Part shown: positions 2,933 to 62,435 of the stretch, one piece after another | Layout: every line of letters begins with the position of its first letter | Position numbering within the stretch: the stretch's first letter is position 1 | From: Borreliella garinii | Lineage (GTDB): Bacteria; Spirochaetota; Spirochaetia; JABEVK01 | Assembly (NCBI GenBank): GCA_020720765.1 | Contig: DYOB01000001.1 | Span: 45,222-109,221 of the forward strand | Direction of reading: 5' to 3' | Length of the DNA: 64,000 nt | Position numbers and translations under genes: made by a program | Notes under the pieces: model-generated | The model's input: the letters and a program-made list of their open reading frames with translations, nothing else | Told to the model about the DNA's origin: nothing | Database searches by the model: none

Positions 2933-5900
2933 AGTGGTTCGGGTTTCCTTTTCTTCTTGGGCTAGTTTTTTCAGCGTCACTTTACGCTCAAGAACCAGTC
3001 GCTGAGGTACCTGAGATAGACTGGAAAACCGAAGTGAACAAAATGGACCTTCAGAGCGTAGACCTGGAAGAGTTGAAAATCTGGGCAAGGACCCTCGGGT
3101 TGGAAGAAACCGGATCCAGAGAAGATTTGGTGAAACGCATTGCTGATAAACTCGGAATAACTTTTGACAGCTCTGAAGCGGCGAACAAGACTGTGAGTAT
3201 CGAAGCTGCTGAAAGTCTCAACACTTTTGAGATGAAAGAGATCGGTGAAGACTACATTCGCATAACAGGAAAAGTCAATATTGTCCTCAACGATAAAGAT
3301 AAGGAAACCTCCCACCGGATAACCGCAGATACTCTTATCCTGAATAAGGCAAGGAACATCCTGGAGGCTAAAGGCAGTGTGGTTTATACATTGACCCGTG
3401 GAACCCAGGTCGAGGTCTTTAGAGGAGATAGTTTGGTATTCCGCCTTGACGACTGGATGGGAGTTTTCTACGGCGGGTCGAGCGAACGCGACCGAACGGT
3501 CTCGGGGAAAACTCTGAGATTCCTTTTTACCGGGGAAGAAATCCACAGGTCAGGCGAGGATGTGGTGATCATGGAGAATGGCCTTATCACTTCCAGCCTT
3601 CCTAAAAATCCCTATTATTCAATACGGGCCAGTAAAATCTGGATTTTAGCGCCGGGTGAATGGGGCTTTCAGAATGCGTTTCTCTATATAGGAAGGGTCC
3701 CTGTTTTTTATTTCCCCATTTATTTCCAGCCGGGCGACGATATGTGGTTCAACCCCGTCATTGGTTTGCCAGAACCTACGGATAGACGCGGGACCTACCT
3801 CCAGACTACAACATATTTTTTTGGGAAGAAGAAAGAAGAGGACAGCCCACTGTCTTTTCTCCAGCTGGGAGAGAGTGATGATACGACACCGCGTGTGATC
3901 AGTGGTCTATACCTAGTCAGGGATACCGACGCACCTCCCGTAACGGCGAATCAGAACTGGACCCTTAAACTTCTGGCCGATCTTTACACAAACCTCGGAG
4001 TATACACAGGACTGGAAGGAAGCCTGACAACCATTGGTTTTCTTGAAAGCTGGACCTTCTTGGCGGGTTTGGGTTTCAGTCGGAATGTTTACCCCGGCGC
4101 CCCTTGGACCCCTTTCTTTTTTCAACCCGAGGCCGGGCTTTGGGAGCAAAGTGTCTGGAATAAAAGCCGGGTCGGTACTCTTGAACTCCCCTTCCGTTAC
4201 AGGCTTGAATCCCGGGCGCAGAGTATGGGGTGGAGCTTAATTTGGGAGTTTTGGTCCGACCCGTTTTTAGGGGAGGATTTTGGAAGTCGTAGCGAAACCT
4301 TCAGTCCATTCGCCCTGATAGGTTTTGGTCCAAAACCTTCAACCGTGACGGAATCAAAGAAAAGCAGTCTCCTCTGGTCCCTGAGTGGGGCGGTGAACCC
4401 CACGGTCCAAATTCTGAACCCTTGGATAACCAGCTTATCTTTCACACCCATTGAGGCCCGCATGGATTATGGGACCAGGACCCATCCTGATTACCTCAGT
4501 CCTGATCCTTCGAGGGAATGGTTTGCCCCGACACGTTTTACACTCCCGAATTTCAGGATTAACCTTGCAGGAGAACTCTTGAATTTTGGTAAAGCCACTT
4601 CAAGAACAAGGCCGGTGCTTTTAGACCCCTTTCGGGAACCAACTCCCGCCCCTGTTCCTGATCCAGGTACAACAGTGCCTGCGGCAGAACCGCCCAAAGT
4701 CGATCCTCTATTTCCCCAACTCCATCTACCGGGACCAGTGTTAGGATCACAAGTTTCCGGGGCACAAACGACTTCAGATAATACATTTGTTCTCAACTAC
4801 ACATGGAACGGTGCTTGGACAACCGACGGCGAGTACAACCAATTGCTTTGGATTCGACCCTATGACGTGGACTGGAGTGTACGGTATGCAAGGAACCAGT
4901 ACAACCAATCGGGTAAACTCGGTTTAACCACCGGTATTCTGGGGCAAACCTTCCGTTCCGAACATTCCTTGAGTTTTTCGGACCGATCGCGCTGGTCGTG
5001 GTTTTTTGATGATAGAGTCTCCGAGACTGATAAGGATACCTTGATAACTTCAGACTACCAAAACGTATCCACCCAGGTTACGAACGCCAATCAAGTGACA
5101 ATTTCGCCCTTGCTTTGGTTATTTCCCTTACGCCTGACTACCACCGCGTACAGTCTGGGACTGCGCCTCTATGAAAAGCGTTACAAGACTTATGACACCA
5201 TCAATAATTCCGGCGTATTCGATGAATACTACCCGGAATGGAAACAGGAGTCTGTGAATCTCCATGAAATCAGTGCGACTCTCCCGTGGACTCCCTTTGA
5301 AGACTCACAGCTCCTTAATATTAACCTTCAGGGAAAAACCTCGTTGGACCCCAGGCCTGTAGAAAGAACCGCGTCGATCAACGTGAGCTCGCGTTGGGAA
5401 ACCTTGTTTTCCTCCCTGAGTGCGGGAATAAAAGGAAACGAGATCGAGTGGCTCCCGGATTTATTGAAATGGACTGCGGAATGGTCTCCATTTTCGTGGA
5501 AATTGTCCAATTCCCTCGACTACGACCTTAAAAAACAAAGGTGGAGCAGCGAAACCGCGACTTTAACCGGATACGGGCTTACTCTTCGCTACTTCCAAAC
5601 CCAAACAGTCCCTTACTATTTCGATACATTGACTAAAAGGTGGATCGCAGGTTTTGAAGGAGGTTCATTCACAGCAGGGGACACTTTTTTTCTGCCTCTT
5701 GAAACTTCTTTGTCCTACCAACTTCCTTCTTTTATCATCACAGACGATCAAAAAATCACAGAATGGAACTTGAGTACTTCGGTTAATGCAAATATTAATA
5801 TCCAGCAGTATACGAATTCCAATTTGAGTTTTCAAACAAGTCTAACTTTTAAAATAATCAACTATCTCGATATGAGTTTCAGCGCCTCAAGTACAAACAG

Positions 5901-36350: not shown

Positions 36351-39032
36351 ATGAAAGATCATATTATATTTTTTGAAGCAGGAAAGAACGCTAAATCAGC
36401 TGACTTGCTTCAGGATTCAGTTGGTGTTCGTGGAAAACAAATATTGGAACTTGCTGAATTGGGTTTACCCATCCCACCAGGCTTTATTCTTTCTAAAGAA
36501 GTGGCTTCCACGTTTAAAGACAATGACTTACAGGTGGAAATTCAGAAGCAATTAAAAATAGTTAATACGAAAATGGGTAAGAGTTATGGGGATATAAAAG
36601 TTCCTCTACTTTTAAAGCTTGTGATCAGCCCCCCGCTTCAAATAAGTTCCTATCCCTCCATCCACAACGTTGGTTTAACCCAGAAAACTCTGATGGGTTT
36701 TGCTACCAACACCTCAAATATCTTTGCCATAGGCGAGTTTCTTTTTCTGATGAAAGGTGTTCTTGATTTGGAACTCAAGATTCTCAGTGTTAAGGATGAT
36801 AAAGTACTGAGGACAAAAATTGAAAAGGCGGTAAAAGAATACGCTGATTTGAGGAAAAAACCTCCTGTTGCAGATAAATTAGAGTCTTTAGAAAAATCTT
36901 TTTCACTTTTATCAGCACCTGGTGCCGCGCTTTTTCCTAAAGATTTCTTTATTGATCCCATGGTTCAATTGAACCACCTACTTATGAGAATTCGTGATCT
37001 TCTGGCCCTAGAAGAGATCACCGAGGGCTCCGGAGAGAATGACACCGCCATTATTGTTCAACCGATGGTATACGGAAACTTTGGAACAAACTCTTCCAGT
37101 GGTAACTTCTTCACACGTGATGTTATAACCGGGGAAGCAAAGATTCAAGGGAATTTTCACAAAGGCGTGTTCAGCGGAGAAGGCGATGGAATCGATATTG
37201 AAAAACTGGATAAGGCCAATTATTCAGCGCTGACAACCGTCGCACAAAAGCTCGAGTCGCACCTTAAAGAAATACGGCATATCAGGTTTACCATTGAGAA
37301 TGGAAAGCTTTACATTATTGAACAGAAAAATGTAGCGGATAAAAGCACGCGTGCAGATATTTCCATTCTCTTAGACCTCCTTGGCAAGAAAAAGGTTACC
37401 GAAGAGTTTGTTGTTACTTCGATAAAAACAAGCCAGCTCGACGAACTTCTTCACCCTATTATTAAGCCTATTTCTGTTAAAACTTTTCCTGCTTATAAGG
37501 GGGGAATCAGCGGCGCTCCCGGAGCAGCCATCGGTAGGGTCTATTTTAGTGCGGATGAACTTATTGCCGCTCAAAAAAATGCACAAAAAAATGGTGAAGA
37601 CCACAGCATGATCCTTGTTATGACTGCCACCTACGCCAACGATGTAAAAGGTGTTGAAGCCGCTAAAGGTGTTCTTTCTTCCGAAGGCGGGTATTCGGCG
37701 CACGCAAGCGTAGTCGCCCGCCAGTATGGTAAGGTTTCCCTTGTAAGACCGGAGATCAAGATCCTTTATGATCAGAAAAAGGTTGTCATAGGAAGCCATA
37801 CCATCAAGGAAGGCGATTATATAACCCTAAATGTTCCGCACTACGGCGATCCTACTATTTATATCGGAAAAGCCGAGCTGATGGAAAACGAGCCGGAATC
37901 ATCCGGACTCTTAAGTTTTTTAAAGATCGTTAAGAGCTTTGTTAAAGATTTCCATGTAAGAAGCAATGCAGATTCAGTGGCTTCAGCCGAGCTGTCCCTG
38001 AAATTCGGTGCTGAAGGTATAGGTCTCTGCCGTACCGAACACATGTTCTTTGATCCTGCCAGAATCAACGTTTTCCGGGAGATGATTTTCGCTGACGACA
38101 GGGAAGAAAGGGTTAAAGTCCTTAAGAAGCTCGGAGTAATGCAGAAAAAAGATTTCACAGGAATTCTTAAGACTATGGCTGGAAAAGAAGTTACTATTCG
38201 ACTTCTTGACGCCCCCTTCCATGAGTTTCTTCCACATAATAAAGAAGAAGCTGGTGAATACCTTGAATACAGCAAGGGAAAAACCGGTACTGCTGCGAGC
38301 ACCTTGAAAGACATCCTTACGAGGACCGAAGACCTTTTCGAGTTCAACCCCATGCTTGGACACCGCGGTTCAAGAATTGCAGTATCCTACCCTGAAATTT
38401 ACGAAATGCAGGTGACGGCGATTCTCGAAGCCGCTTACGAACTGAAAAAGCAGGGATTGGACGTAAGACCGGAGATTATGCTTCCTGTCATTATGAACGA
38501 AAACGAACTTAAGCTCTTGATTTTCGGAAAGAAAATCGAAGGTGCTTCGTATAAGGGTTTGATCGACGTAGCTGAAGAAGTTGCAGCCCGGTATAAGGAT
38601 CAAAAACCCATCCATTTTAAAGTGGGGACTATGGTTGAGATCCCGGCTGCGGCGGTTTCTGCTGGAAAACTTGCGAAGTACGCTGAGTTCTTTTCCTTCG
38701 GAACCAATGATTTAACCCAAACGACCCTTGGCCTATCGAGGGATGACTTTAACAGTTTTATGCCTGATTATACCCAATTGGATTTACTCAACGGCAACCC
38801 ATTCAAATTTCTTGATGAAGCAGTGAAAGAGATGGTAGCAATGGCTGTTAGGCGAGGAAAGCTGACTAGACCTGATATTATTTCAGGTCTTTGTGGTGAA
38901 CACGGAGCAGTACCGGAAAATATCGAGTTTTGTATGAAAGTAGGTTTGGATTACGTTTCGTGTTCTCCCTACCAAATCCCTAACGCAATGCTGGCTGTGG
39001 CCCAGCTGAATATCAAAAACGGTAAGGTATAA
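36351..39032 (+). CDS. ppdK: Pyruvate, phosphate dikinase
   Basis: N-terminal ATP-grasp region (GLPIPPGF), phospho-His domain (GGYSAHASVVARQYGK), PEP-utilising C-domain (GLCRTEHMFF...); 893 aa. Confidence 0.9.
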   Translation: MKDHIIFFEAGKNAKSADLLQDSVGVRGKQILELAELGLPIPPGFILSKEVASTFKDNDLQVEIQKQLKIVNTKMGKSYGDIKVPLLLKLVISPPLQISSYPSIHNVGLTQKTLMGFATNTSNIFAIGEFLFLMKGVLDLELKILSVKDDKVLRTKIEKAVKEYADLRKKPPVADKLESLEKSFSLLSAPGAALFPKDFFIDPMVQLNHLLMRIRDLLALEEITEGSGENDTAIIVQPMVYGNFGTNSSSGNFFTRDVITGEAKIQGNFHKGVFSGEGDGIDIEKLDKANYSALTTVAQKLESHLKEIRHIRFTIENGKLYIIEQKNVADKSTRADISILLDLLGKKKVTEEFVVTSIKTSQLDELLHPIIKPISVKTFPAYKGGISGAPGAAIGRVYFSADELIAAQKNAQKNGEDHSMILVMTATYANDVKGVEAAKGVLSSEGGYSAHASVVARQYGKVSLVRPEIKILYDQKKVVIGSHTIKEGDYITLNVPHYGDPTIYIGKAELMENEPESSGLLSFLKIVKSFVKDFHVRSNADSVASAELSLKFGAEGIGLCRTEHMFFDPARINVFREMIFADDREERVKVLKKLGVMQKKDFTGILKTMAGKEVTIRLLDAPFHEFLPHNKEEAGEYLEYSKGKTGTAASTLKDILTRTEDLFEFNPMLGHRGSRIAVSYPEIYEMQVTAILEAAYELKKQGLDVRPEIMLPVIMNENELKLLIFGKKIEGASYKGLIDVAEEVAARYKDQKPIHFKVGTMVEIPAAAVSAGKLAKYAEFFSFGTNDLTQTTLGLSRDDFNSFMPDYTQLDLLNGNPFKFLDEAVKEMVAMAVRRGKLTRPDIISGLCGEHGAVPENIEFCMKVGLDYVSCSPYQIPNAMLAVAQLNIKNGKV

Positions 39033-53557: not shown

Positions 53558-53770
53558 ATGGAAAACCTTATAAAAGGTCTTATTGTTTCAGGACTCGGAA
53601 TCTTCTGGGTCTATTCTTTTCTGATTATCATGATACTTTCGATGAAAGTCTTTTCATTCGCCGTTAATAAGGTCCTAAAATTGAAAGAAAAAAATAACCA
53701 GCTCTCCTCAAAACCCGCAGTCGCTGCAGCAGCTTGGTCCCTCCACCACCATAAGGAAACACAGGAATGA
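53558..53770 (+). CDS. oadG: Oxaloacetate decarboxylase gamma subunit
   Basis: 70-aa single-TM protein immediately upstream of and overlapping oadA (ATGA). Confidence 0.65.
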   Translation: MENLIKGLIVSGLGIFWVYSFLIIMILSMKVFSFAVNKVLKLKEKNNQLSSKPAVAAAAWSLHHHKETQE

Positions 53771-55554
53771 AAAAACATATCCACACAATGATCACCGCCT
53801 TTCGGGATGGGTTCCAGAGTTGTTACGGTGCCAGGGTTTTAACCGATGATTTTCTGCCTGCGGTGACCGAGGCCGTGAATTCGGGTTTAACCCACTTGGA
53901 GATAGGCGGAGGGGCTCGTTTTCAGAGTCTCTACTTTTATTGCAACGAAGACGCTTTTACCATGATGGACCGTGTCCGAGCCGCTGCGGGTCCCGAGGCA
54001 AACCTTCAAACCCTCAGCAGGGGGATCAATGTCGTCGGTTTGGATAGCCAGCCTAAGGAGATCATCAAGCTCCACGCCGAACTTTTTAAAAAACACGGTG
54101 TGACGACCATCCGTAACTTTGACGCACTCAACGATGTGGACAACCTTCTTTACAGCGCAAAGTGCATCAAGGATGCCGGGTTAAAACATGAAGTTTGTAT
54201 AACAGTGATGGAATTGCCCCCTGGAAACAGTGGGGCCCACAACGAAACTTTTTATACAGCGGTTCTTAAAAAAATCCTGGATTCGGGTCTGTCCTTTGAT
54301 TCTGTCTGTTATAAAGACGCAACAGGAACTTTGACGCCGGCCACTGTCTTTTCAAGCCTTAAAGCCGCCCGGAACCTGCTGGGTGATAAGGTCCGCCTGG
54401 CTTTCCACAACCATGAAACAGCGGGAATCGGTACGCTTTCCTACCGTGCAGCCCTCGATGCAGGTGTAGATCAGATCGACCTGAGTCTCGCCCCTGTCAG
54501 CGGAGGAACCTGCCAGACCGACGTTGTGGTGATGTGGCATGCCTTGAGGGGCACGGATTACGACCTTGGACTGGATATTCAAAAAATCATGAAGCTCGAA
54601 GAGAACTTCAAGGAGAGCATGAAAGGTTATTTTCTGCCGCCTGAAGCGACCAGGGTTGAACCCCTGATCCCTTTTAGTCCGATGCCGGGCGGCGCTCTAA
54701 CTGCAAATACACAGATGCTCAGGGACAACGGCCTTATGGACCGCTACCCCGAGGTTATAGCAGCGATGGAGGAAGTCGTTGCCAAAGGCGGCTACGGCAC
54801 GAGCGTGACGCCGGTCAGCCAGTTTTATTTCCAGCAAGCATTTTCCAACGTGATGCATGGGCCGTGGAAAAAAATCAGCGACGGATACGGCCGTATGGTT
54901 CTCGGTTACTTCGGAAAGACACCTGTTCCACCCGACCCGGCCGTGGTGAAGCTCGCTTCGGAACAATTGAAGCTCCCGCAGACTTCGGAATCTGCTTTGG
55001 AACTCACTGAAAAAGACCCTGAAAAAAGCTTGGATAAGGCCCGTTTGATGTTAAAAAACGCTTTCCTGCCCGAGACCCAGGAAAATCTTTTTATCGCCGC
55101 AACCTGCCTCGAAAAAGGCATCAGTTTTCTTAAAGGCGAGGCAAAGGTGAACGTCAGAAAGAGAATGAAGTCTGACGGGCATTATTCCGTGACCTCGGGC
55201 GGCAAAAGTTTCAAGGTTCTTGTGAAGGAGAATTCAGTTATCGTAGACGGGGAGGAAATCCAGGTTTCCCAAGAAGGTTCAATGTCCGCACCACAAGTGT
55301 CCAGCCACCATCCCGCGGTCCAAAGCGGTGACGGTGAAGGCACTGGAATTACCGCACCGTTACCGGGTCTTGTGATCCGGTTTCTTAAAAAGCCTGGTGA
55401 AAAGATCAATAAAGGAGATATGGTCCTTGTCCTTGAATCCATGAAGGAAGAACACACCATACCATCGGGTTCATCGGGTACGTTAAAATCCTGGCTTGTT
55501 GCCCAGGGCGATCAGGTAAGCGCGGGGCATAAACTCGCCGAGTTGGGGGAATAA
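53767..55554 (+). CDS. oadA: Oxaloacetate decarboxylase alpha subunit (carboxyltransferase + biotin carrier domain)
   Basis: TIM-barrel carboxyltransferase domain (pyruvate carboxylase 5S-like), C-terminal biotinyl domain with lysine in LESMKEE context. Confidence 0.85.
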   Translation: MKKHIHTMITAFRDGFQSCYGARVLTDDFLPAVTEAVNSGLTHLEIGGGARFQSLYFYCNEDAFTMMDRVRAAAGPEANLQTLSRGINVVGLDSQPKEIIKLHAELFKKHGVTTIRNFDALNDVDNLLYSAKCIKDAGLKHEVCITVMELPPGNSGAHNETFYTAVLKKILDSGLSFDSVCYKDATGTLTPATVFSSLKAARNLLGDKVRLAFHNHETAGIGTLSYRAALDAGVDQIDLSLAPVSGGTCQTDVVVMWHALRGTDYDLGLDIQKIMKLEENFKESMKGYFLPPEATRVEPLIPFSPMPGGALTANTQMLRDNGLMDRYPEVIAAMEEVVAKGGYGTSVTPVSQFYFQQAFSNVMHGPWKKISDGYGRMVLGYFGKTPVPPDPAVVKLASEQLKLPQTSESALELTEKDPEKSLDKARLMLKNAFLPETQENLFIAATCLEKGISFLKGEAKVNVRKRMKSDGHYSVTSGGKSFKVLVKENSVIVDGEEIQVSQEGSMSAPQVSSHHPAVQSGDGEGTGITAPLPGLVIRFLKKPGEKINKGDMVLVLESMKEEHTIPSGSSGTLKSWLVAQGDQVSAGHKLAELGE

Positions 55555-56772
55555 ATGGATTTTTTATCGGCACTTTCAGAAATCTGGAAAAGCACGGGCA
55601 TCGTGGGCTTTATTCATGAAGGCGGTTACCTGAACCTTATTATGATAGGTATCAGTCTGCTACTGATTTACCTTGCAGTCGCAAAAAACTTCGAACCTCT
55701 CCTCCTCCTACCTATAGGTTTCGGGGGGATCCTCGCCAACCTGCCCTTAACGGGTATTCTCACCCATACTATCAGCATGATCGACCCCAGCGGGACGGCG
55801 CCGTGGGCAGTGAGCGTTCTCGAATACGGCGGTTTTCTCGGACAGATCTACGACTTCGGCCTTCAGAGCGGGCTCTTTCCCATCATGATCTTTATGGGGG
55901 TCGGTGCCATGACCGACTTCGGGCCGTTGATCGCCAACCCCATCACCGCACTCCTCGGTGGAGCCGCCCAGATAGGAATCTTTGGAGCGCTTACCGGTGC
56001 CCTTGCCCTGACTATGACAGGGTTGTTCCAATTCGATCTTCGGGACGCCGCCAGCATCGGAATCATCGGGGGTGCGGACGGACCTACGGCCATCTACCTC
56101 ACCACCCGGCTTTCTAAGGATCTCCTTGGTGCCGTGGCGGTCGCAGCTTACAGTTATATGGCTTTGGTACCCATCATCCAGCCCCCCATTATGAGGGCCT
56201 TGACGACGAAAAAAGAACGCGCAATCAAGATGGATCAATTGAGAACCGTGAGCAAGACCGAAAAGGTACTATTCCCTATCCTGGTCCTGATCCTGACGGG
56301 TCTTTTTCTCCCGAGCGCTGTTCCTTTGATCGGTGCTCTTATGTTTGGAAACCTTGCCCGCGAGACAGGTGTTGTTCAAAGGCTTTCCGAAACCATGCAG
56401 AACTCCCTGATCAACATTGTAACGATATTTCTCGGGCTCTCTGTGGGCTCCAAACTCCAGGCCGAGGTGTTTCTGAGGCCGGAAACCTTAGCCATCCTTG
56501 TTTTGGGACTCTTTGCCTTTTCCATGGGTACAGCAGGTGGGGTTCTGATGGCAAAACTCATGAACCTTTTTCTGAAAAAGAAAATCAATCCTCTGATCGG
56601 GGCGGCCGGTGTTTCAGCGGTTCCCATGGCTGCTCGTGTTGTGAACAAGGTGGGGTTGGAGACCGACCCCCAGAATTACCTTCTCATGCACGCTATGGGT
56701 CCCAATGTTTCGGGGGTTATTGGAAGCGCTGTGGCAGCCGGCCTGATGCTTTCGATTGTTCCTTTGATGTAA
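55555..56772 (+). CDS. oadB: Oxaloacetate decarboxylase beta subunit (Na+ pump)
   Basis: Polytopic membrane protein with OadB-family conserved helices; follows oadA by 0 nt. Confidence 0.85.
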
Positions 56773-56836
56773 GGATAAACTTGACCTGAAACTCTTGGAG
56801 CATTAGACTTAACGTAACTTTAGATAAGGAGCATGT

Positions 56837-57913
56837 ATGGGTATTTTTGAAAAACTTAAACCAGGGGTTATTTACGGCAAGGATCTTGCCACCCTTTTCC
56901 AAATATGTAAGGACCAGGATTTTGCCTTACCCGCTGTCAACTGCGTGAATACCGAAAGTGTGAATGCAGCTATGGAAGTTGCCAAGGCTGTCAACAGTCC
57001 TATCATCATCCAGTTTTCCAACGGCGGAGCCCAATTTTACGCTGGAAAAGGTTTGAAGCTCGAGGGGCAGGAAGCTGCAATTCTCGGTGGAGTCAGCGCT
57101 GCCAAGCACGTTCACCTCCTCGCTGAGAAATACGGTGTGGCAGTCGTCCTTCACACCGACCATTGTGCCAAGAAACTCCTTCCTTGGGTGGACGGACTTC
57201 TCGACCACGGAGAGAAGTTTTATAAGGAAACAGGAAGACCCCTTTTCTCCAGCCACATGCTGGACCTGAGCGAGGAACCCATCGCAGAGAACATTGAAAT
57301 CAGCAAAAAATACCTTGAGAGGATGACCAAACTCGAAATGTTCCTTGAAATCGAACTTGGAGTGACTGGTGGTGAAGAGGATGGTGTTGATAATTCCGGC
57401 ACACCCGAAGAAGACCTTTATTCCAAACCCGAAGAGATTGATTTTGCCTACACGGAACTTCTCAAGGTCAGCCCCAATTTTACCATTGCCGCAGCTTTCG
57501 GAAACGTCCACGGTGTTTACAAACCCGGAAACGTTAAATTGACACCCAAGATTTTGGACAAGAGCCAGAAGTATGTTGTTGAAAAACACAAGACAGCAAG
57601 CCACGAACCCGTCACATACGTTTTTCACGGAGGATCAGGTTCTACCCGTGCTGAAATCCGCGAGGCCATCAGCTACGGTGTGGTGAAGATGAACATCGAT
57701 ACCGACACTCAGTGGGCAACTTGGGAAGGTATCCTGAACTACTACAAGCAGAACGAAGGTTACCTCCAGGGACAATTGGGCAACCCCACGGGTCCAGATG
57801 CCCCCAACAAAAAATTCTATGATCCGAGGGTCTGGTTGAGAAAGGCCCAGGAAACCATGATAGCCAGGCTTAAACTGGCCTATGAGGACCTGGATTCGCT
57901 TAACAGAAACTAA
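56837..57913 (+). CDS. fba: Fructose-bisphosphate aldolase class II
   Basis: Class II FBA motifs (PVILQFSNGG-like PIIIQFSNGG, HTDHC, GVTGGEEDG). Confidence 0.9.
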   Translation: MGIFEKLKPGVIYGKDLATLFQICKDQDFALPAVNCVNTESVNAAMEVAKAVNSPIIIQFSNGGAQFYAGKGLKLEGQEAAILGGVSAAKHVHLLAEKYGVAVVLHTDHCAKKLLPWVDGLLDHGEKFYKETGRPLFSSHMLDLSEEPIAENIEISKKYLERMTKLEMFLEIELGVTGGEEDGVDNSGTPEEDLYSKPEEIDFAYTELLKVSPNFTIAAAFGNVHGVYKPGNVKLTPKILDKSQKYVVEKHKTASHEPVTYVFHGGSGSTRAEIREAISYGVVKMNIDTDTQWATWEGILNYYKQNEGYLQGQLGNPTGPDAPNKKFYDPRVWLRKAQETMIARLKLAYEDLDSLNRN

Positions 57914-57932
57914 GATTCTTCGGGACTTAACA

Positions 57933-57958
57933 AACCGGCCTGGTGGCCGGTTTTTTTA
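57933..57958. terminator. Bidirectional rho-independent terminator between convergent fba and NifX-like gene
   Basis: AACCGGCC-tggt-GGCCGGTT 8-bp stem followed by TTTTTTT; A-run on the other side. Confidence 0.8.
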
Positions 57959-58360
57959 TTGATGTTCGTGTCTAAGTCCTGAATTTCCAGGACCATGGTG
58001 CGCATCGTGTTCCTCACAGGCACCGCTGGCAATCTCCTTGAGCTTCCCTTCCTCAAAAAGCAAGGCGGTCTGGGCCAAGGTTCCAGAACGAGGCGCTTGG
58101 TAGACTTTTATTCCCTTCACCTTGAGATTTGCTACAGCTCCGGCGCCTATTCCTCCGGTGATCACAACCTCTGCCCCGGTAATCTCGAGCGCTTCAGCCG
58201 GTTTGCAGTGGCCGTGCGGGTGTGATTGGTGGGTGTTGGCCACAACCGTCCAAAGCCTGCTTTCTGTATCGAACACCCCAAAAAACGGCGCCGAGCCGAA
58301 ATGCATGTAAACCTGTTCTTGCGGTCCGGAACCTTCGCCCATTGGCAAAGCAATCTTCAT
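57956..58360 (-). CDS. NifB/NifX-family (dinitrogenase FeMo-cofactor-binding-like) domain protein with His-rich C-terminus
   Basis: MKIALP...HFGSAPFF...VVITGGIGAGA pattern typical of Nitro_FeMo-Co domain; C-terminal EEHDAHHGPGNSGLRHEHQ. Confidence 0.7.
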   Translation of the reverse strand: MKIALPMGEGSGPQEQVYMHFGSAPFFGVFDTESRLWTVVANTHQSHPHGHCKPAEALEITGAEVVITGGIGAGAVANLKVKGIKVYQAPRSGTLAQTALLFEEGKLKEIASGACEEHDAHHGPGNSGLRHEHQ

Positions 58361-58656
58361 AAATTCTCCTTGTGAGTTATGCTCACTTCCATGGATATCG
58401 CGAACCCTCCAAGAAGGGCACGTGCCGTTTTCTTTCTAGCTGACTCAATAATATTTGCAAAAGTGGCTCGGGAAATTCCCATCAGCCCTGCCGCTTCAAC
58501 CTGGTACAGCCCATCGAGATCCGCGAGTCTAAGCGCCTCTATCTCATCCGTTTTAAGCGAAATGACCTCCAGATCCATCATCGGGATGCCCTGGGGTTTA
58601 AAAAACCTGGAGCGCGGGTTCGCTTGGATACATCTCTGTTTCCTCGGCCGGGACAT
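58357..58656 (-). CDS. DUF134/UPF0251-family small DNA-binding protein
   Basis: MSRPRKQR...FKPQG...EIEALRLADLDGLYQVEAAGLMGISRATFANIIESARKKTA matches the DUF134 consensus (sigma-70 region-4-like HTH); ATGA overlap with downstream NifX-like gene. Confidence 0.7.
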   Translation of the reverse strand: MSRPRKQRCIQANPRSRFFKPQGIPMMDLEVISLKTDEIEALRLADLDGLYQVEAAGLMGISRATFANIIESARKKTARALLGGFAISMEVSITHKENL

Positions 58657-58673
58657 GTTTCTTTATAGTCCAA

Positions 58674-58693
58674 TTATTGACATATGTCAATAA
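58674..58693. promoter_or_regulatory. 20-bp perfect palindrome TTATTGACATATGTCAATAA in divergent DUF134/mnmG intergenic region
   Basis: Exact inverted repeat; contains TTGACA on both strands; followed by second IR GTCGAgttcTCGAC and T-run. Confidence 0.5.
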
Positions 58694-58742
58694 CTCGGGT
58701 CGAGTTCTCGACATTTTTTCGAATTTATAGTAATTCTAAGGT

Positions 58743-60605
58743 ATGGATTTTCAAGCTCTCGTTGTGGGTGGTGGTCACGCAGGCATAGAAGCGGCCTTGG
58801 TGCTCTCAAGGCTGGGTTTTTCAACCCTCATGATCACTCAGAATTTGGACAGCATCGGTCGAATGAGCTGTAACCCGGCGGTAGGCGGTTTGGCGAAAGG
58901 CAACATGGTACGCGAGATCGACGCGCTGGGCGGGGAGATGGGCCGCTTGATTGATGCGACCATGATCCAATTCAGAATTCTCAACAAAAGCCGCGGGCCG
59001 GCTGTCCAGGCGCCAAGAGCCCAGGCTGATAAGGTTGCGTATCAAATAAAAGCTAAACAAACCCTGGAGGACCAGAAAAATCTCACCTTATTTATGGATA
59101 CCGTTGTAGAAATTCTTCTCGATGGTTCGGGAAAGAAAGCCATTGGCGTTCGCACACTGAGGGGGCGGGAATTCATGGCGCGTGTGGTGGTTCTTACAAC
59201 GGGAACTTTCCTGGCCGGCAAGCTGTTTATCGGTGAAACAATTCTCGATGGCGGCCGTCTGGGTGAACCCGGGGCGTACGGTCTTGATAAACAACTCAGG
59301 AATCTGGGGTTTACTGTTGGTAGGATGAAAACTGGGACTCCCGCGCGTGTCCATAGGGATTCGTTGGATTTTTCCAGGATGGAAGAGCAGTTCGGTGACG
59401 AGGATATCGTACCTTTTTCGTTCAGCGGCGGCCCCGTCGAAAGACCGCAGCTTTCGTGCTACATCACGTGGACCAATGAAAAGACGCACAAGATCCTGCG
59501 TACCAATATGCACCGTTCACCCTTGTTTTCGGGGCAAATCGTCGGCCTTGGACCAAGGTATTGTCCCAGTATCGAGGATAAGGTTAAAAAATTTGCAGAG
59601 CGGGAGCGGCATCAGGTGTTTGTGGAACCCGAAGGCGCAGGTACAAAGGAAATGTATCTCAACGGGATCAGTTCCAGCATGCCCGAAGACGTCCAAGAGG
59701 CGATGATCCATTCCATACCCGGTCTTGAGAAAGCCGTGATCATGAGGCCGGGCTACGCTGTGGAATACGACTATCTGGACCCATCCCAGCTCTTCCCCAG
59801 TCTGGAGACAAAACGCATCGAGGGACTTTTCACGGCAGGTCAAACAAATGGTACGAGTGGATACGAAGAAGCAGCGGCGCAAGGACTTATGGCGGGCATC
59901 AATGCGGCCAGGAAACTCCAAAAAAAGGAACCCGTGATCCTCTCAAGGAGCGAGGCCTACGTCGGGGTTCTTATCGACGACTTGGTGACTTTAGGGACAG
60001 AAGAACCTTACCGGATGTTTACAAGCAGGGCCGAACACAGGCTCAACCTTCGCCACGACAGTTCGGACCAGCGGCTTTATGCGAAGGGTTACGAGATCGG
60101 ATTGCACTCCGGGAAAACCTGGGAGCTCTTTCAGGAAAAACTCCGGAAGATCGACGAAGTAAAAGAAATCCTTTCCAAAAGGCGTTTGAAAACTCCCGAG
60201 GCCCAATTCAACCCTATCCTTGTCAAGCATATTGGATCTACTTTTCAAACCCTTCTCAAGGACCCCGAGGTTAAGGTGGAAGATATCCTTCTCTGTGAAC
60301 CCCTTCTTGAAAATATTCCGATGGATTGGTTAAAGCACCTTGAGCTTGATATTAAATACGAGGGTTATATTCAGAAACAGGATAGGCAAGTAGAAAAATT
60401 TGAACGCCTTGAGGATATGAGTATTCCCCGTGATTTCGATTACCAGGCACTGGCGGGTCTATCCAGGGAAGCCAGGGAAAAGTTCTCGAAGATTCAACCC
60501 CTCTCGGTTGGTCAGGCTTCCCGTATCAGCGGCGTACGTTCAAGCGATATAGCACTCCTTATGACCGCTGCGGTCCGGTTTCAAAAAAACAGTGAACCAG
60601 CCTGA
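58743..60605 (+). CDS. mnmG: tRNA uridine-5-carboxymethylaminomethyl modification enzyme MnmG (GidA)
   Basis: FAD-binding [12 protein letters not shown], conserved MnmG core and C-terminal helical domain. Confidence 0.95.
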
Positions 60606-61239
60606 TCCTGAAGGTTTACTCTTTGACGGTCTAAAAAATTTGGGGATCGATCCCTCCTTTGTACCGGGATTTTTCCTTTATTGGCGGGAACTCGTCAAAC
60701 ACAACACCCGTTACGGCCTGGTAAGTGCTACCGATGAGGAATTGATTTCGCGGCATATCATAGACTCGCTCGGTCCGTGGAAAACTCTTCTGGAGGGAAG
60801 TCCTCAAACGGTGGTCGACCTTGGGAGCGGGGGAGGGTTGCCGGGTATTCCTCTCAGTCTGCTCTTAAGAAATCTTTTACCTAACTCGAAAATGATTCTC
60901 GCTGAAAGGATGGACAAGCGAGCGGTATTCCTCGAAGGAACCCGTGCCAGGTTAGGATTAGGCCAAGTGGAAATCTTTTCATCTTCGATAGAAAAATTAA
61001 CTGTTTCGAAAGCCGATCTCCTCGTCAGCAGGGCTTTTATGCCCATGGGTGAAGAACTTGTCCAATTGTGTTCACCTCTTCTGAGAGATGGTGGGCGTCT
61101 CGCTGTCTACGTAGGAAAAAAGGAGGAAGCCCTATCCTTACTCTCCGGGGACCTGAAAAGTCAGGTCGAATGGTTTAAATATTCCTTACCGGGTCTTTCT
61201 CATGAAAGGTGGCTAGCCGTGTGGGTAAAAAAGTCTTAA
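60592..61239 (+). CDS. rsmG: 16S rRNA m7G527 methyltransferase RsmG (GidB)
   Basis: SAM-binding [13 protein letters not shown] motif; overlaps mnmG end. Confidence 0.9.
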
Positions 61240-61691: not shown

Positions 61692-62435
61692 TTACTCTTT
61701 TAGGGTCCTGAATTCTTCAAGAAGTAACAATGGATCATCTGTGTAGCCAGCCGGTTTAATACGCAATGCTTCGATAAAACGAGCCCAATAATTAACTTTA
61801 GCTGAAAGAGCCGCTATTGCTACTATTTCCTCATGAGAAAAGAGACTGCGAATATCTGACAAAAGATTCGTATCAAAACTAACAGGGGTTTGTGTTATAG
61901 CAACTGCATATTTGAGTGCGGCTTTTTCTTCTTGTGTAAATGATGACACACTCTCAATTGGGGTTATTCCCTGCATTGCCCGTAATTCATCCTCGTTTAT
62001 TAAGTTTTCTTTATATTTCGCAGAGTTTACGTCAATGGCAAAAGGGCACGAAACGGTATATGAGACTTGCATACGTAAGAGAGTTACCAACCGCGGATCA
62101 AGAATTTTAGCAACACCCTTTTCGATATAAAGCTCAAGAGCTCCAGAGGCAATCCCAAGATCCTCGGACCAAGTAAGTATGCGTCCAGGTAATAACTCAA
62201 CCCCAAACTCTTTTTCTGCAAAACACAATAAAAATCCAGAAAATGCGGGAATTTCAGAAGGTGGGCTAATAAAACTCCTTGCCTGAGTATCTATATCTGC
62301 CGTCCAATCTGTTCCACCACCAGGAATAGGTTCATATTCATTCGCCGTTTTATGTGGTTTTATACTATTACAAGAAAAGATACTAAAAAATGTCAATAAT
62401 ATAGCTACAATCCTGAAAATAACGCTATTATTCAT
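61692..62435 (-). CDS. Secreted/lipoprotein carboxymuconolactone-decarboxylase (AhpD-like) family protein
   Basis: N-terminal signal peptide MNNSVIFRIVAILLTFFSIFSC; C-terminal CMD-domain-like region; about 30% GC codon usage. Confidence 0.5.
   Translation of the reverse strand: MNNSVIFRIVAILLTFFSIFSCNSIKPHKTANEYEPIPGGGTDWTADIDTQARSFISPPSEIPAFSGFLLCFAEKEFGVELLPGRILTWSEDLGIASGALELYIEKGVAKILDPRLVTLLRMQVSYTVSCPFAIDVNSAKYKENLINEDELRAMQGITPIESVSSFTQEEKAALKYAVAITQTPVSFDTNLLSDIRSLFSHEEIVAIAALSAKVNYWARFIEALRIKPAGYTDDPLLLLEEFRTLKE

Follow-up and report, generated by a model that had tools for sequence, protein, structure and literature searches.

ArsR/SmtB, CsoR and NikR are small dimeric repressors that sit on a dyad over their own promoter and are co-transcribed with a metal-handling protein. 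EnfR, of the Tfx family, is a dimer with a helix-turn-helix like that of region 4 of sigma-70; it represses from a pseudo-palindrome that extends over both the promoter and the region of the start codon, its N-terminal loop takes part in DNA recognition, and the lack of a ligand-binding domain of its own led its authors to suspect that a partner protein exists (PMC10570040). On the side of the cluster-binding proteins, IssA binds thioferrate, ORP a Mo-Cu-S cluster and the MrpORP domain an Fe-S cluster (PMC6345978, PMC8351635), and the ORP gene cluster of Desulfovibrio is controlled by the sigma-54 activator OrpR (PMC8359166). Here we describe a locus in a 64,000-nucleotide stretch of contig DYOB01000001.1 (this whole stretch is referred to as the window), where a DUF134 (UPF0251) gene and a NifX-like gene with a Nitro_FeMo-Co domain form a pair that is preceded by a perfect palindrome of 20 base pairs (bp). 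We consider that the palindrome is very probably bound by the DUF134 protein and that it probably serves as the operator through which the pair represses its own transcription. A preliminary description of the window had stated that the gene pair has no established function, and this stands: in the literature searched, from which curated regulon databases were set apart, there is no function, DNA target, operator or regulation for DUF134.

The palindrome and its relatives in other genomes

The palindrome lies in the intergenic region between the DUF134 gene and the divergent mnmG (Table 1) and is exact, with TTGACA on both strands (58677-58682 on the plus strand and 58690-58685 on the minus strand), just as first described. 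It is the longest perfect palindrome of the 64 kb. A search for further copies found it to be the sole match to TTATTGACATATGTCAATAA in the window at up to 3 mismatches, and found the exact 20-mer in four other metagenome loci (see below). Its length is only marginally unusual, palindromes of at least 20 bp being found in 3 of 100 dinucleotide shuffles of the window, and its significance rests on the comparison between genomes and not on its length. When scored with a matrix made from 119 other DUF134-upstream sites, the window being excluded, the site reaches 26.8 bits and the runner-up in the 64 kb 7.7 bits. An exact operator half-site, ATGTCAATAA (the equivalent of TTATTGACAT on the minus strand), is found at 62380-62399, inside the open reading frame 61692..62435; its other half is absent, it scores 7.7 bits, and chance alone would give ~0.12 half-sites of this kind in the window. 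The second-longest palindrome of the window, a perfect one of 16 bp (TGGTTCAATTGAACCA, 36961-36976), is of a length often reached in the shuffles.

For the comparison, 80 loci from many phyla were listed from one-genome-per-species collections, with DUF134 relatives 47-61% identical to the window protein; the window's own species is not among the listed GTDB representatives. Inverted repeats were sought upstream of the DUF134 gene in all 80. Dyads of 20 bp were found to recur there, for example TTATGAGCATATGCTCATAA, TTATTAGCATATGCTAATAA and TTATTGGCATATGCCAATAA, starting 26 to 46 nucleotides (nt) before the start codon. Their consensus has TTAT-[G/T][A/G][G/A]-CAT in the first half and ATG-...-ATAA in the second, and an information content of 26.5 bits. 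Enrichment was calculated with a matrix trained on independent metagenome sites only and a threshold of 12 bits. A site at or above this threshold lies within the 130 nt upstream of DUF134 in 61 of the 80 listed species genomes, and outside those upstream regions there were 6 hits in 570,159 positions, which corresponds to an enrichment of ~640-fold; several outlier sites precede a NifX-like gene instead. Among the phyla covered are Desulfobacterota, Planctomycetota, Omnitrophota, Elusimicrobia, Bacteroidota, Ignavibacteria, Acidobacteriota and Spirochaetota. The only loci found with the same DUF134 protein cluster as the window (L001, L202, L203) are 99% identical to it and are thus uninformative on conservation.

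The reverse test, in which metagenome contigs were scanned for TTATNNRCATATGYNNATAA with no protein as reference, gave at least 121 sites in at least 120 loci. Among the matches listed, a DUF134 gene starts no more than 200 nt downstream in 58 of the 121 sites, and 10 further listed sites lie at contig ends. As a genome has at most a few DUF134 genes, we infer that adjacency by chance would be expected for about 1 site in 10,000. The exact 20-mer of the window was recovered, again among the matches listed, at the four loci mentioned above (L113, L143, L161 and L184); all four adjoin DUF134 genes, of a different, Clostridia-like type, and in L184 the DUF134 gene is fused to a NifX-like domain. 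Three further listed sites without DUF134 precede NifX-like (Nitro_FeMo-Co) or DUF5320 genes. Separately, the metagenome scan brought up other recurrent palindrome-like sequences, TTATGCGCATATGCGCATAA and TTATCAACATATGTGGATAA (L159, L168, L175, L191; L094, L115, L181, L183), which have no DUF134 gene nearby and may serve other regulators or belong to repeated elements.

If DUF134 reads the site, changes in the protein should be matched by changes in the DNA. Mutual information was calculated over 116 protein columns for 120 non-identical DUF134 proteins, each paired with its best upstream site. The strongest link is between operator position 5 and residue 68 (window numbering), at 0.85 bits versus 0.44 bits for the next column, and operator position 7 is best linked with residues 64 and 67. 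Residues 68, 64 and 67 are the three columns of highest mutual information and all of them fall in the predicted recognition helix, S62-R-x-T-F-x-x68-I. Where the protein has Arg68, position 5 is G in 121, A in 29 and T in 10 of 160 half-sites, and where it has Asn68, position 5 is T in 50 of 50. A two-state rule, by which Arg68 goes with at least one purine and any other residue with pyrimidines in both halves, describes all 120 pairs (the next best column reaches 77%), and each of the two characters changes ~13 times on a neighbour-joining tree made without the helix columns. The window conforms, with Asn68 and T at position 5 in both halves. DUF134 itself is thus the likely binder, as position 5 tracks its residue 68; the covariation is strong circumstantial evidence for this, short of proof. 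The related sites in many phyla, the blind scan and the covariation together give strong support in silico to the earlier suggestion that the palindrome is an autoregulatory DUF134 operator.

Operator position, predicted promoters and other readings of the site

The coding strand of the window upstream of DUF134 reads TTGACA, 17 nt, TATAAA, GAAAC and then the ATG, with the TTGACA lying inside the palindrome (Table 1). The window sequence has no Shine-Dalgarno box before this ATG and, as the -10 box is in addition only 5 nt from it, the DUF134 mRNA is predicted to be leaderless or near-leaderless. At 22 other DUF134 loci a near-consensus promoter similarly ends 8 nt or less before the start codon.

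Promoters were scored in 120 loci by E. coli-type sigma-70 consensus rules, using our own scoring; in 75 of these loci the score is at least 10 of 12, close to consensus. Relative to the operator, the TTGAC boxes fall mainly at three offsets. In the first register (36 loci), the operator begins 15 nt ahead of the -10 box, so that TTGACA is followed after 2-3 nt by the operator, the final bases of which are TATAAT; the result, TTGACA-17-TATAAT-6-ATG, is a leaderless design in which the operator makes up both the spacer and the -10 box. In the second (7 loci including the window), the operator starts 26 nt before the -10 box and the -35 box is inside it. In the third (~40 loci), the operator starts 2 to 12 nt after the -10 box, which overlaps the first operator bases, and the start point is covered. 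At some Bacteroidota and Ignavibacteria loci (L058, L064, L070, L071, upstream of ~3964-3975), our own reading of the listing places a TAnnTTTG-type box immediately before the operator; this is the type of the -7 promoter element of those phyla, and the overlap between operator and promoter would thus be kept despite the other promoter type.

Promoters so near to consensus should need no activator, and an operator inside the footprint of the polymerase points to repression. From the position of the site, therefore, the outcome is probably autorepression. The opposite sign, with DUF134 binding the palindrome but activating the operon as a class II activator or in the MerR manner, by replacing or assisting -35 recognition, is unlikely. 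It would suit the fold of DUF134, which resembles sigma region 4, the region that reads -35 boxes, and the overlap of the window site with a -35 box, and about one-fifth of the loci do have poor predicted promoters. However, in the 36 loci of the first register the site takes up both the -10 box and the spacer, of an optimal 17 nt, of a promoter with consensus TTGACA and TATAAT boxes, and in the ~40 of the third it covers the transcription start, both positions being typical of repressors; a MerR-type mechanism requires spacers of 19-20 nt, and a consensus promoter requires no activator at all.

A second alternative adds to autoregulation rather than replacing it. The preliminary description had the palindrome also gate the divergent mnmG-rsmG promoter, and the centre of the operator is indeed ~59 bp from the mnmG ATG, with the plus-strand TTGACA facing mnmG. 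This TTGACA, however, has no good -10 box 17 nt past it (the sequence there is TCGAGT), and comparison with the three closest relatives found (L204-L206; MnmG 76-79% identical) argues against such control. They keep mnmG-rsmG, with a VWA-domain gene upstream in place of DUF134, and they have neither DUF134 nor any operator-like site upstream of mnmG (best scores 6 bits or less). The TCTCGAC...ATTTATAGTAA block just upstream of mnmG is nevertheless conserved in four Spirochaetota genomes, those of the window and of L204-L206 (at ~3455-3500), and synteny with these closest relatives breaks exactly at the block. For their part, the upstream neighbours of DUF134 are different in nearly all of the 80 listed genomes. 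Since the relatives keep the block without DUF134 or operator, the 86-bp intergenic region appears to consist of a DUF134 half and a self-sufficient mnmG half. As a conserved feature the gating of mnmG is rejected by this comparison, and even for the window we find it quite doubtful; the adjacency of the DUF134 unit to tRNA-modification genes looks incidental, and the metal-responsive switch tied to those genes that had been envisaged loses its tie.

The comparisons between genomes bear on two smaller points of the preliminary description. The palindrome was expected in related species, and it does have counterparts upstream of DUF134 across phyla, but it is absent in the closest MnmG relatives, which lack DUF134. 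The second inverted repeat noted next to the palindrome is present, with its T-run, but it is weak; its right arm is the conserved TCTCGAC of the mnmG block, its left arm is specific to the window, and the sequence is not inverted in L204-L206. Within the block, TCGACA and TATAGT are 12 nt apart, too short for a standard -35/-10 pair.

In a further reading, the palindrome is the site of an unlinked regulator, such as a metal or Fe-S sensor of the ArsR/SmtB, Fur or Rrf2 type, that controls DUF134 operons. We take GAACATATGTTC-type sites to resemble the operators of some ArsR/SmtB repressors, and metal-related neighbours do occur (a cation-efflux gene, Mrp/NBP35, thioredoxin). Such a regulator is nonetheless very improbable: position 5 tracks a residue of DUF134 in 120 of 120 pairs through ~13 changes, the site accompanies DUF134 across many phyla, and no other regulator gene is consistently linked. 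A role in RNA, as a leader hairpin affecting translation or stability or as a terminator, was rejected and we give it hardly any credence. The palindrome would fold as a stem of 10-12 bp with -11.9 kcal/mol, but its imperfect copies show no G-U bias (33 G-U, 29 A-C, 63 other), the central CATATG, where the loop would have to be, is one of the best-conserved portions, the hairpin would not be transcribed in full given predicted starts within the site or downstream of it, and an Rfam scan of the whole window gave no match. Finally, a chance palindrome, or two back-to-back -35 boxes of divergent promoters, can be dismissed for practical purposes: the shuffles show that the length can arise, but the site scores 26.8 bits against a matrix from other genomes, the motif is enriched ~640-fold upstream of DUF134, and the general consensus, GAGCATATGCTC, does not read as a -35 box.

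The gene pair, its surroundings and a candidate sensor

Both proteins match the families to which they had been assigned. The DUF134 protein aligns to PF02001 over residues 2-88 (E 1.2e-20, 74.3 bits, cut-off 27) and the NifX-like protein to PF02579 (E 2.5e-19, 69.8 bits, cut-off 26.3), with the HFG motif at H20-F21-G22. The ATGA coupling of the two genes and the His-rich tail of the second were also described correctly: the plus strand has TCAT at 58357-58360, where the stop of DUF134 and the start of the NifX-like gene overlap by 4 nt, and the NifX-like protein ends in ...GACEEHDAHHGPGNSGLRHEHQ, the tail as a whole (HDAHHGPGNSGLRHEHQ) being rich in His and acidic. Public gene calls differ from ours. 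The JGI call starts DUF134 at the internal Met26 (74 aa; L203 4001-4225), leaving out 25 N-terminal residues that are conserved family-wide, and the NCBI start of the NifX-like gene is 6 codons late (128 aa; L202 4315-4701).

The DUF134 protein has a helix-turn-helix like that of sigma-70 region 4, with the recognition helix S62-R-A-T-F-A-N68-I, and a basic N-terminal arm, MSRPRKQR. Both parts of the family signature, the RPxKxR...FKPxGIP arm and the SRxTF recognition helix, are present, and R3, P4, R8, P21, E40, L44, D46, S62, R63 and T65 are invariant in 28 sequences including that of the window. The score against NCBIfam PRK04217 is only 57 bits (cut-off 115), so the protein is not that equivalog; at an E of 1e-10 or better, the family itself counts 3,867 clusters when grouped at 50% identity. 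An AlphaFold 2 model (mean pLDDT, the predicted local distance difference test score, of 83) has a floppy basic arm and a core of three helices (36-47, 52-59 and 63-83), the third of them long. Foldseek matched it to region 4 of extracytoplasmic function (ECF) sigma factors, to the DeoR helix-turn-helix and to EnfR of Thermococcus (8HNO). A profile search of PDB sequences gave only the DeoR helix-turn-helix above noise, did not retrieve 8HNO and found no DUF134 structure. The possibility that DUF134 is itself a sigma factor was ruled out, as it has a region-4-like domain only and no sigma region 2.

For 56 of the 120 DUF134 proteins with an operator, the next gene downstream, on the same strand, is NifX-like, and in 12 of the 120 the two are fused, always in the same order and through several unrelated linkers; these repeated fusions suggest that the two domains work together. 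In 94 DUF134-linked relatives of the NifX-like protein, residues H20, F21, G22, H47, H49, G50, C52, C115 and H118 are conserved, and all of them are present in the window protein. DUF134 in the window has one Cys and no zinc ribbon; if it senses a signal at all, its NifX-like partner would be the obvious sensor candidate. A Cys-rich zinc ribbon is found at the C-terminus of 39 of the 120 DUF134 proteins with an operator. The idea that these forms dispense with a NifX neighbour was rejected, since 18 of the 39 have one, against 38 of 69 short forms. Tentatively, then, the DUF134 and NifX-like proteins may together be a split or fused transcription factor, the Nitro_FeMo-Co domain of which senses the availability of metal or of an Fe-S- or Mo-S-type cluster; responsiveness to metal or Fe-S is plausible given the conserved His and Cys positions and the fusions. 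Genes further downstream in other genomes include those for Orp3/Orp4-like P-loop/4Fe-4S proteins, Mrp/NBP35, radical SAM, TrmO-like and cation-efflux proteins and thioredoxin.

Several NifX-like genes near DUF134 operators have long GMGRG-rich tails that match DUF5320 and recall the cationic tail of IssA (L102 2126-2701; L189 1987-2598; L126 2978-3439; L085 4683-5084; L096 1493-1807). In L096 the start of a stand-alone DUF5320 gene falls right on an operator-like site.

Table 1 Features of the DUF134/NifX-like locus in the window (strand "." for features without direction)
Feature	Position	Strand	Basis and remarks
NifX-like (Nitro_FeMo-Co domain) gene	57956..58360	-	134 aa; Pfam PF02579; His-rich C-terminal tail
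DUF134 (UPF0251) gene	58357..58656	-	99 aa; Pfam PF02001 match
Shine-Dalgarno box AAGGAG of NifX-like gene	58366-58371	-	Sequence reading; 5 nt before ATG; inside DUF134 3' end
Predicted -10 box TATAAA	58662..58667	-	5 nt before DUF134 ATG (58656)
Predicted -35 box TTGACA of DUF134 promoter	58685..58690	-	Sequence; inside operator; score 11 of 12, 17-nt spacer
Operator (predicted)	58674..58693	.	Perfect 20-bp palindrome TTATTGACATATGTCAATAA, two 10-bp half-sites TTATTGACAT; matrix score 26.8 bits
Second inverted repeat GTCGAgttcTCGAC, then ATTTTTT	58699..58712	+	5-bp hairpin, weak (-5.7 kcal/mol); unlikely to belong to the switch
Conserved mnmG promoter block, TCTCGAC	58706-58712		Followed by ATTTATAGTAA at a spacing of N10
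Conserved mnmG promoter block, ATTTATAGTAA	58723-58733		
mnmG	58743..60605		Divergent from DUF134/NifX-like pair
rsmG	60592..61239		Divergent from DUF134/NifX-like pair
Bidirectional intrinsic terminator	57929..57956	.	Common to fba (+) and DUF134/NifX-like operon (-); 9-bp stem, ~-16 kcal/mol on either strand

The terminator sits between the gene pair and the convergent fba, a class II fructose-bisphosphate aldolase gene. On the other side of fba from the pair are the genes of a Na+-pumping oxaloacetate decarboxylase, these and the aldolase gene together spanning 53767-57913. The alpha subunit of the decarboxylase is the open reading frame 53767..55554, identified by the HMGL-like, PYC_OADA and Biotin_lipoyl matches in 99%-identical loci, and the beta subunit is 55555..56772. 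The best named relatives of MnmG are from Spirochaetota (64-69% identity) and its uncultured relatives reach 76-79%, which places the window in an uncultured spirochaete.

We propose that the locus is a self-contained, negatively autoregulated two-gene operon, which might work as follows. A DUF134 dimer would bind the 20-bp palindrome with one monomer on each half-site, TTATTGACAT. Each monomer would read its half-site through the recognition helix of the sigma-region-4-like helix-turn-helix, residue 68 being matched to base pair 5 and residues 64 and 67 influencing base pair 7, and the basic N-terminal arm may assist on the AT-rich flanks. The operator would hold the -35 box of the strong sigma-70-type promoter from which the operon itself is transcribed, with the transcript starting probably at or beside the ATG, so that bound DUF134 would exclude RNA polymerase and lower the amounts both of DUF134 and of the translationally coupled NifX-like protein. 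The latter, with its conserved His and Cys residues and His-rich tail, may bind either a metal or a cluster of the iron-sulfur type and, as the partner that senses the signal, may alter the affinity of DUF134 for DNA.

The motif, its link to DUF134, its overlap with the predicted promoters and the covariation are established by comparison. Other observations weigh against the proposal. In about a quarter of the 80 genome loci, DUF134 is not preceded by a site. Only the position of the site points to the sign of regulation, and the E. coli-type consensus rules are only partly valid in the phyla scored. The covariation comes from related sequences, and a tree of such short proteins is noisy for the counting of independent changes; for position 7, which is A in the window, residues 64 and 67 give no clean prediction, the combination A64/A67 occurring with both G and A. 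As for sensing, ~39 of the 120 DUF134 proteins have a zinc-ribbon tail of their own and many are without an adjacent NifX gene in the DNA available, so that the sensor could lie elsewhere, and it is as a proposal only that we say the NifX-like protein may contact DUF134 and may bind metal.

Significance and comparison with described systems

The DUF134 family, which spans many phyla of mostly uncultured bacteria, here gains a concrete and testable 20-bp DNA target. The locus and its relatives offer a precise operator, a predicted contact between residue 68 and base pair 5, and promoter designs, many of them leaderless, that predict repression; the gene fusions name the NifX-like domain as a candidate receiver of the signal. 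The function of both families thus becomes accessible to simple experiments, and regulons should be predictable from genome sequence. As far as we have searched, the DUF134 operator, the recognition rule, the leaderless promoter designs and the Nitro_FeMo-Co domain as a proposed signal module are new. What the NifX-like proteins of non-diazotrophs such as TM1290 and MTH1175 do has been an open question since the structural-genomics era, and the same applies to the ORP and IssA systems. If the split-factor reading is true, it would provide a widespread switch for cluster-handling genes of the ORP and IssA type in mostly anaerobe-associated lineages, with a readable code (residue 68 to base 5), and this would be, to our knowledge, the first regulator family with a Nitro_FeMo-Co domain as its sensor.

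Relatives of the NifX-like protein in the PDB include TM1290 (1T3V/1O13, E 2e-11), TM1816, MTH1175, ORP (2WFB) and PH0822. These proteins and Pyrococcus IssA have the same fold family and HFG motif as the window protein, and the end of TM1290 (...EVHDHHHH) resembles that of the window protein (...CEEHDAHH). For none of the six do we know of a link to a transcription factor. The window protein differs from IssA in that its tail is His-rich and acidic, without the Gly/Arg/Met-rich cationic tail, and from MrpORP in that it lacks the CxHFGHCE motif; only the C-terminal domain of the MrpORP/ORP model aligns, with 36 bits against a cut-off of 450, and there are no Orp3, Orp4 or Mrp genes beside the pair in the window. 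Nor is it a true NifX, NafY or NifB: no NCBIfam equivalog was found at E 0.01 or better, and at this locus the flanking genes are fba and mnmG. The gene content of the Desulfovibrio ORP clusters, with a single-domain Nitro_FeMo-Co protein, Orp3/Orp4-like proteins with two 4Fe-4S motifs and Mrp/NBP35, does match the surroundings of many DUF134 genes. Their regulator OrpR likewise senses through an Fe-S cluster, but it belongs to the sigma-54 enhancer-binding proteins and its site, GGGCGYRTTTTGCGCCC, is another one (PMC6345978, PMC8359166).

On the DNA-binding side, the best structural and sequence matches of the DUF134 core are region 4 of sigma-70 and ECF factors and the N-terminal helix-turn-helix of DeoR/SorC. 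Unlike DeoR/SorC, DUF134 is without a sugar-binding domain and, unlike sigma, it reads a dyad instead of a single -35 box. EnfR (TON_1525; PDB 8HNO) aligns to the DUF134 model with 38% identity over 48 columns (Foldseek), but only the helix-turn-helix core superposes, not the 'eighth note' fold of the Tfx family; DUF134 has no TFX_C domain by Pfam, EnfR being in a different Pfam family and having no link to a NifX-like gene. The site of EnfR is a loose 36-bp repeat, compared with the tight 20-bp palindrome of DUF134 (PMC10570040).

The conserved dyad (61 of 80 genomes; 58 of 121 listed sites), its overlap with the predicted core promoter in three registers and the covariation of regulator and site (120 of 120) are what would be looked for in the functional class of autoregulated helix-turn-helix repressors with a dyad operator. 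The kind of system is thus a familiar one, in which a small dimeric helix-turn-helix repressor occupies a dyad at its own promoter. ArsR/SmtB, CsoR and NikR share this logic with the DUF134 unit without homology to it; they sense within the repressor, whereas here the sensor would be a separate, sometimes fused, Nitro_FeMo-Co domain.

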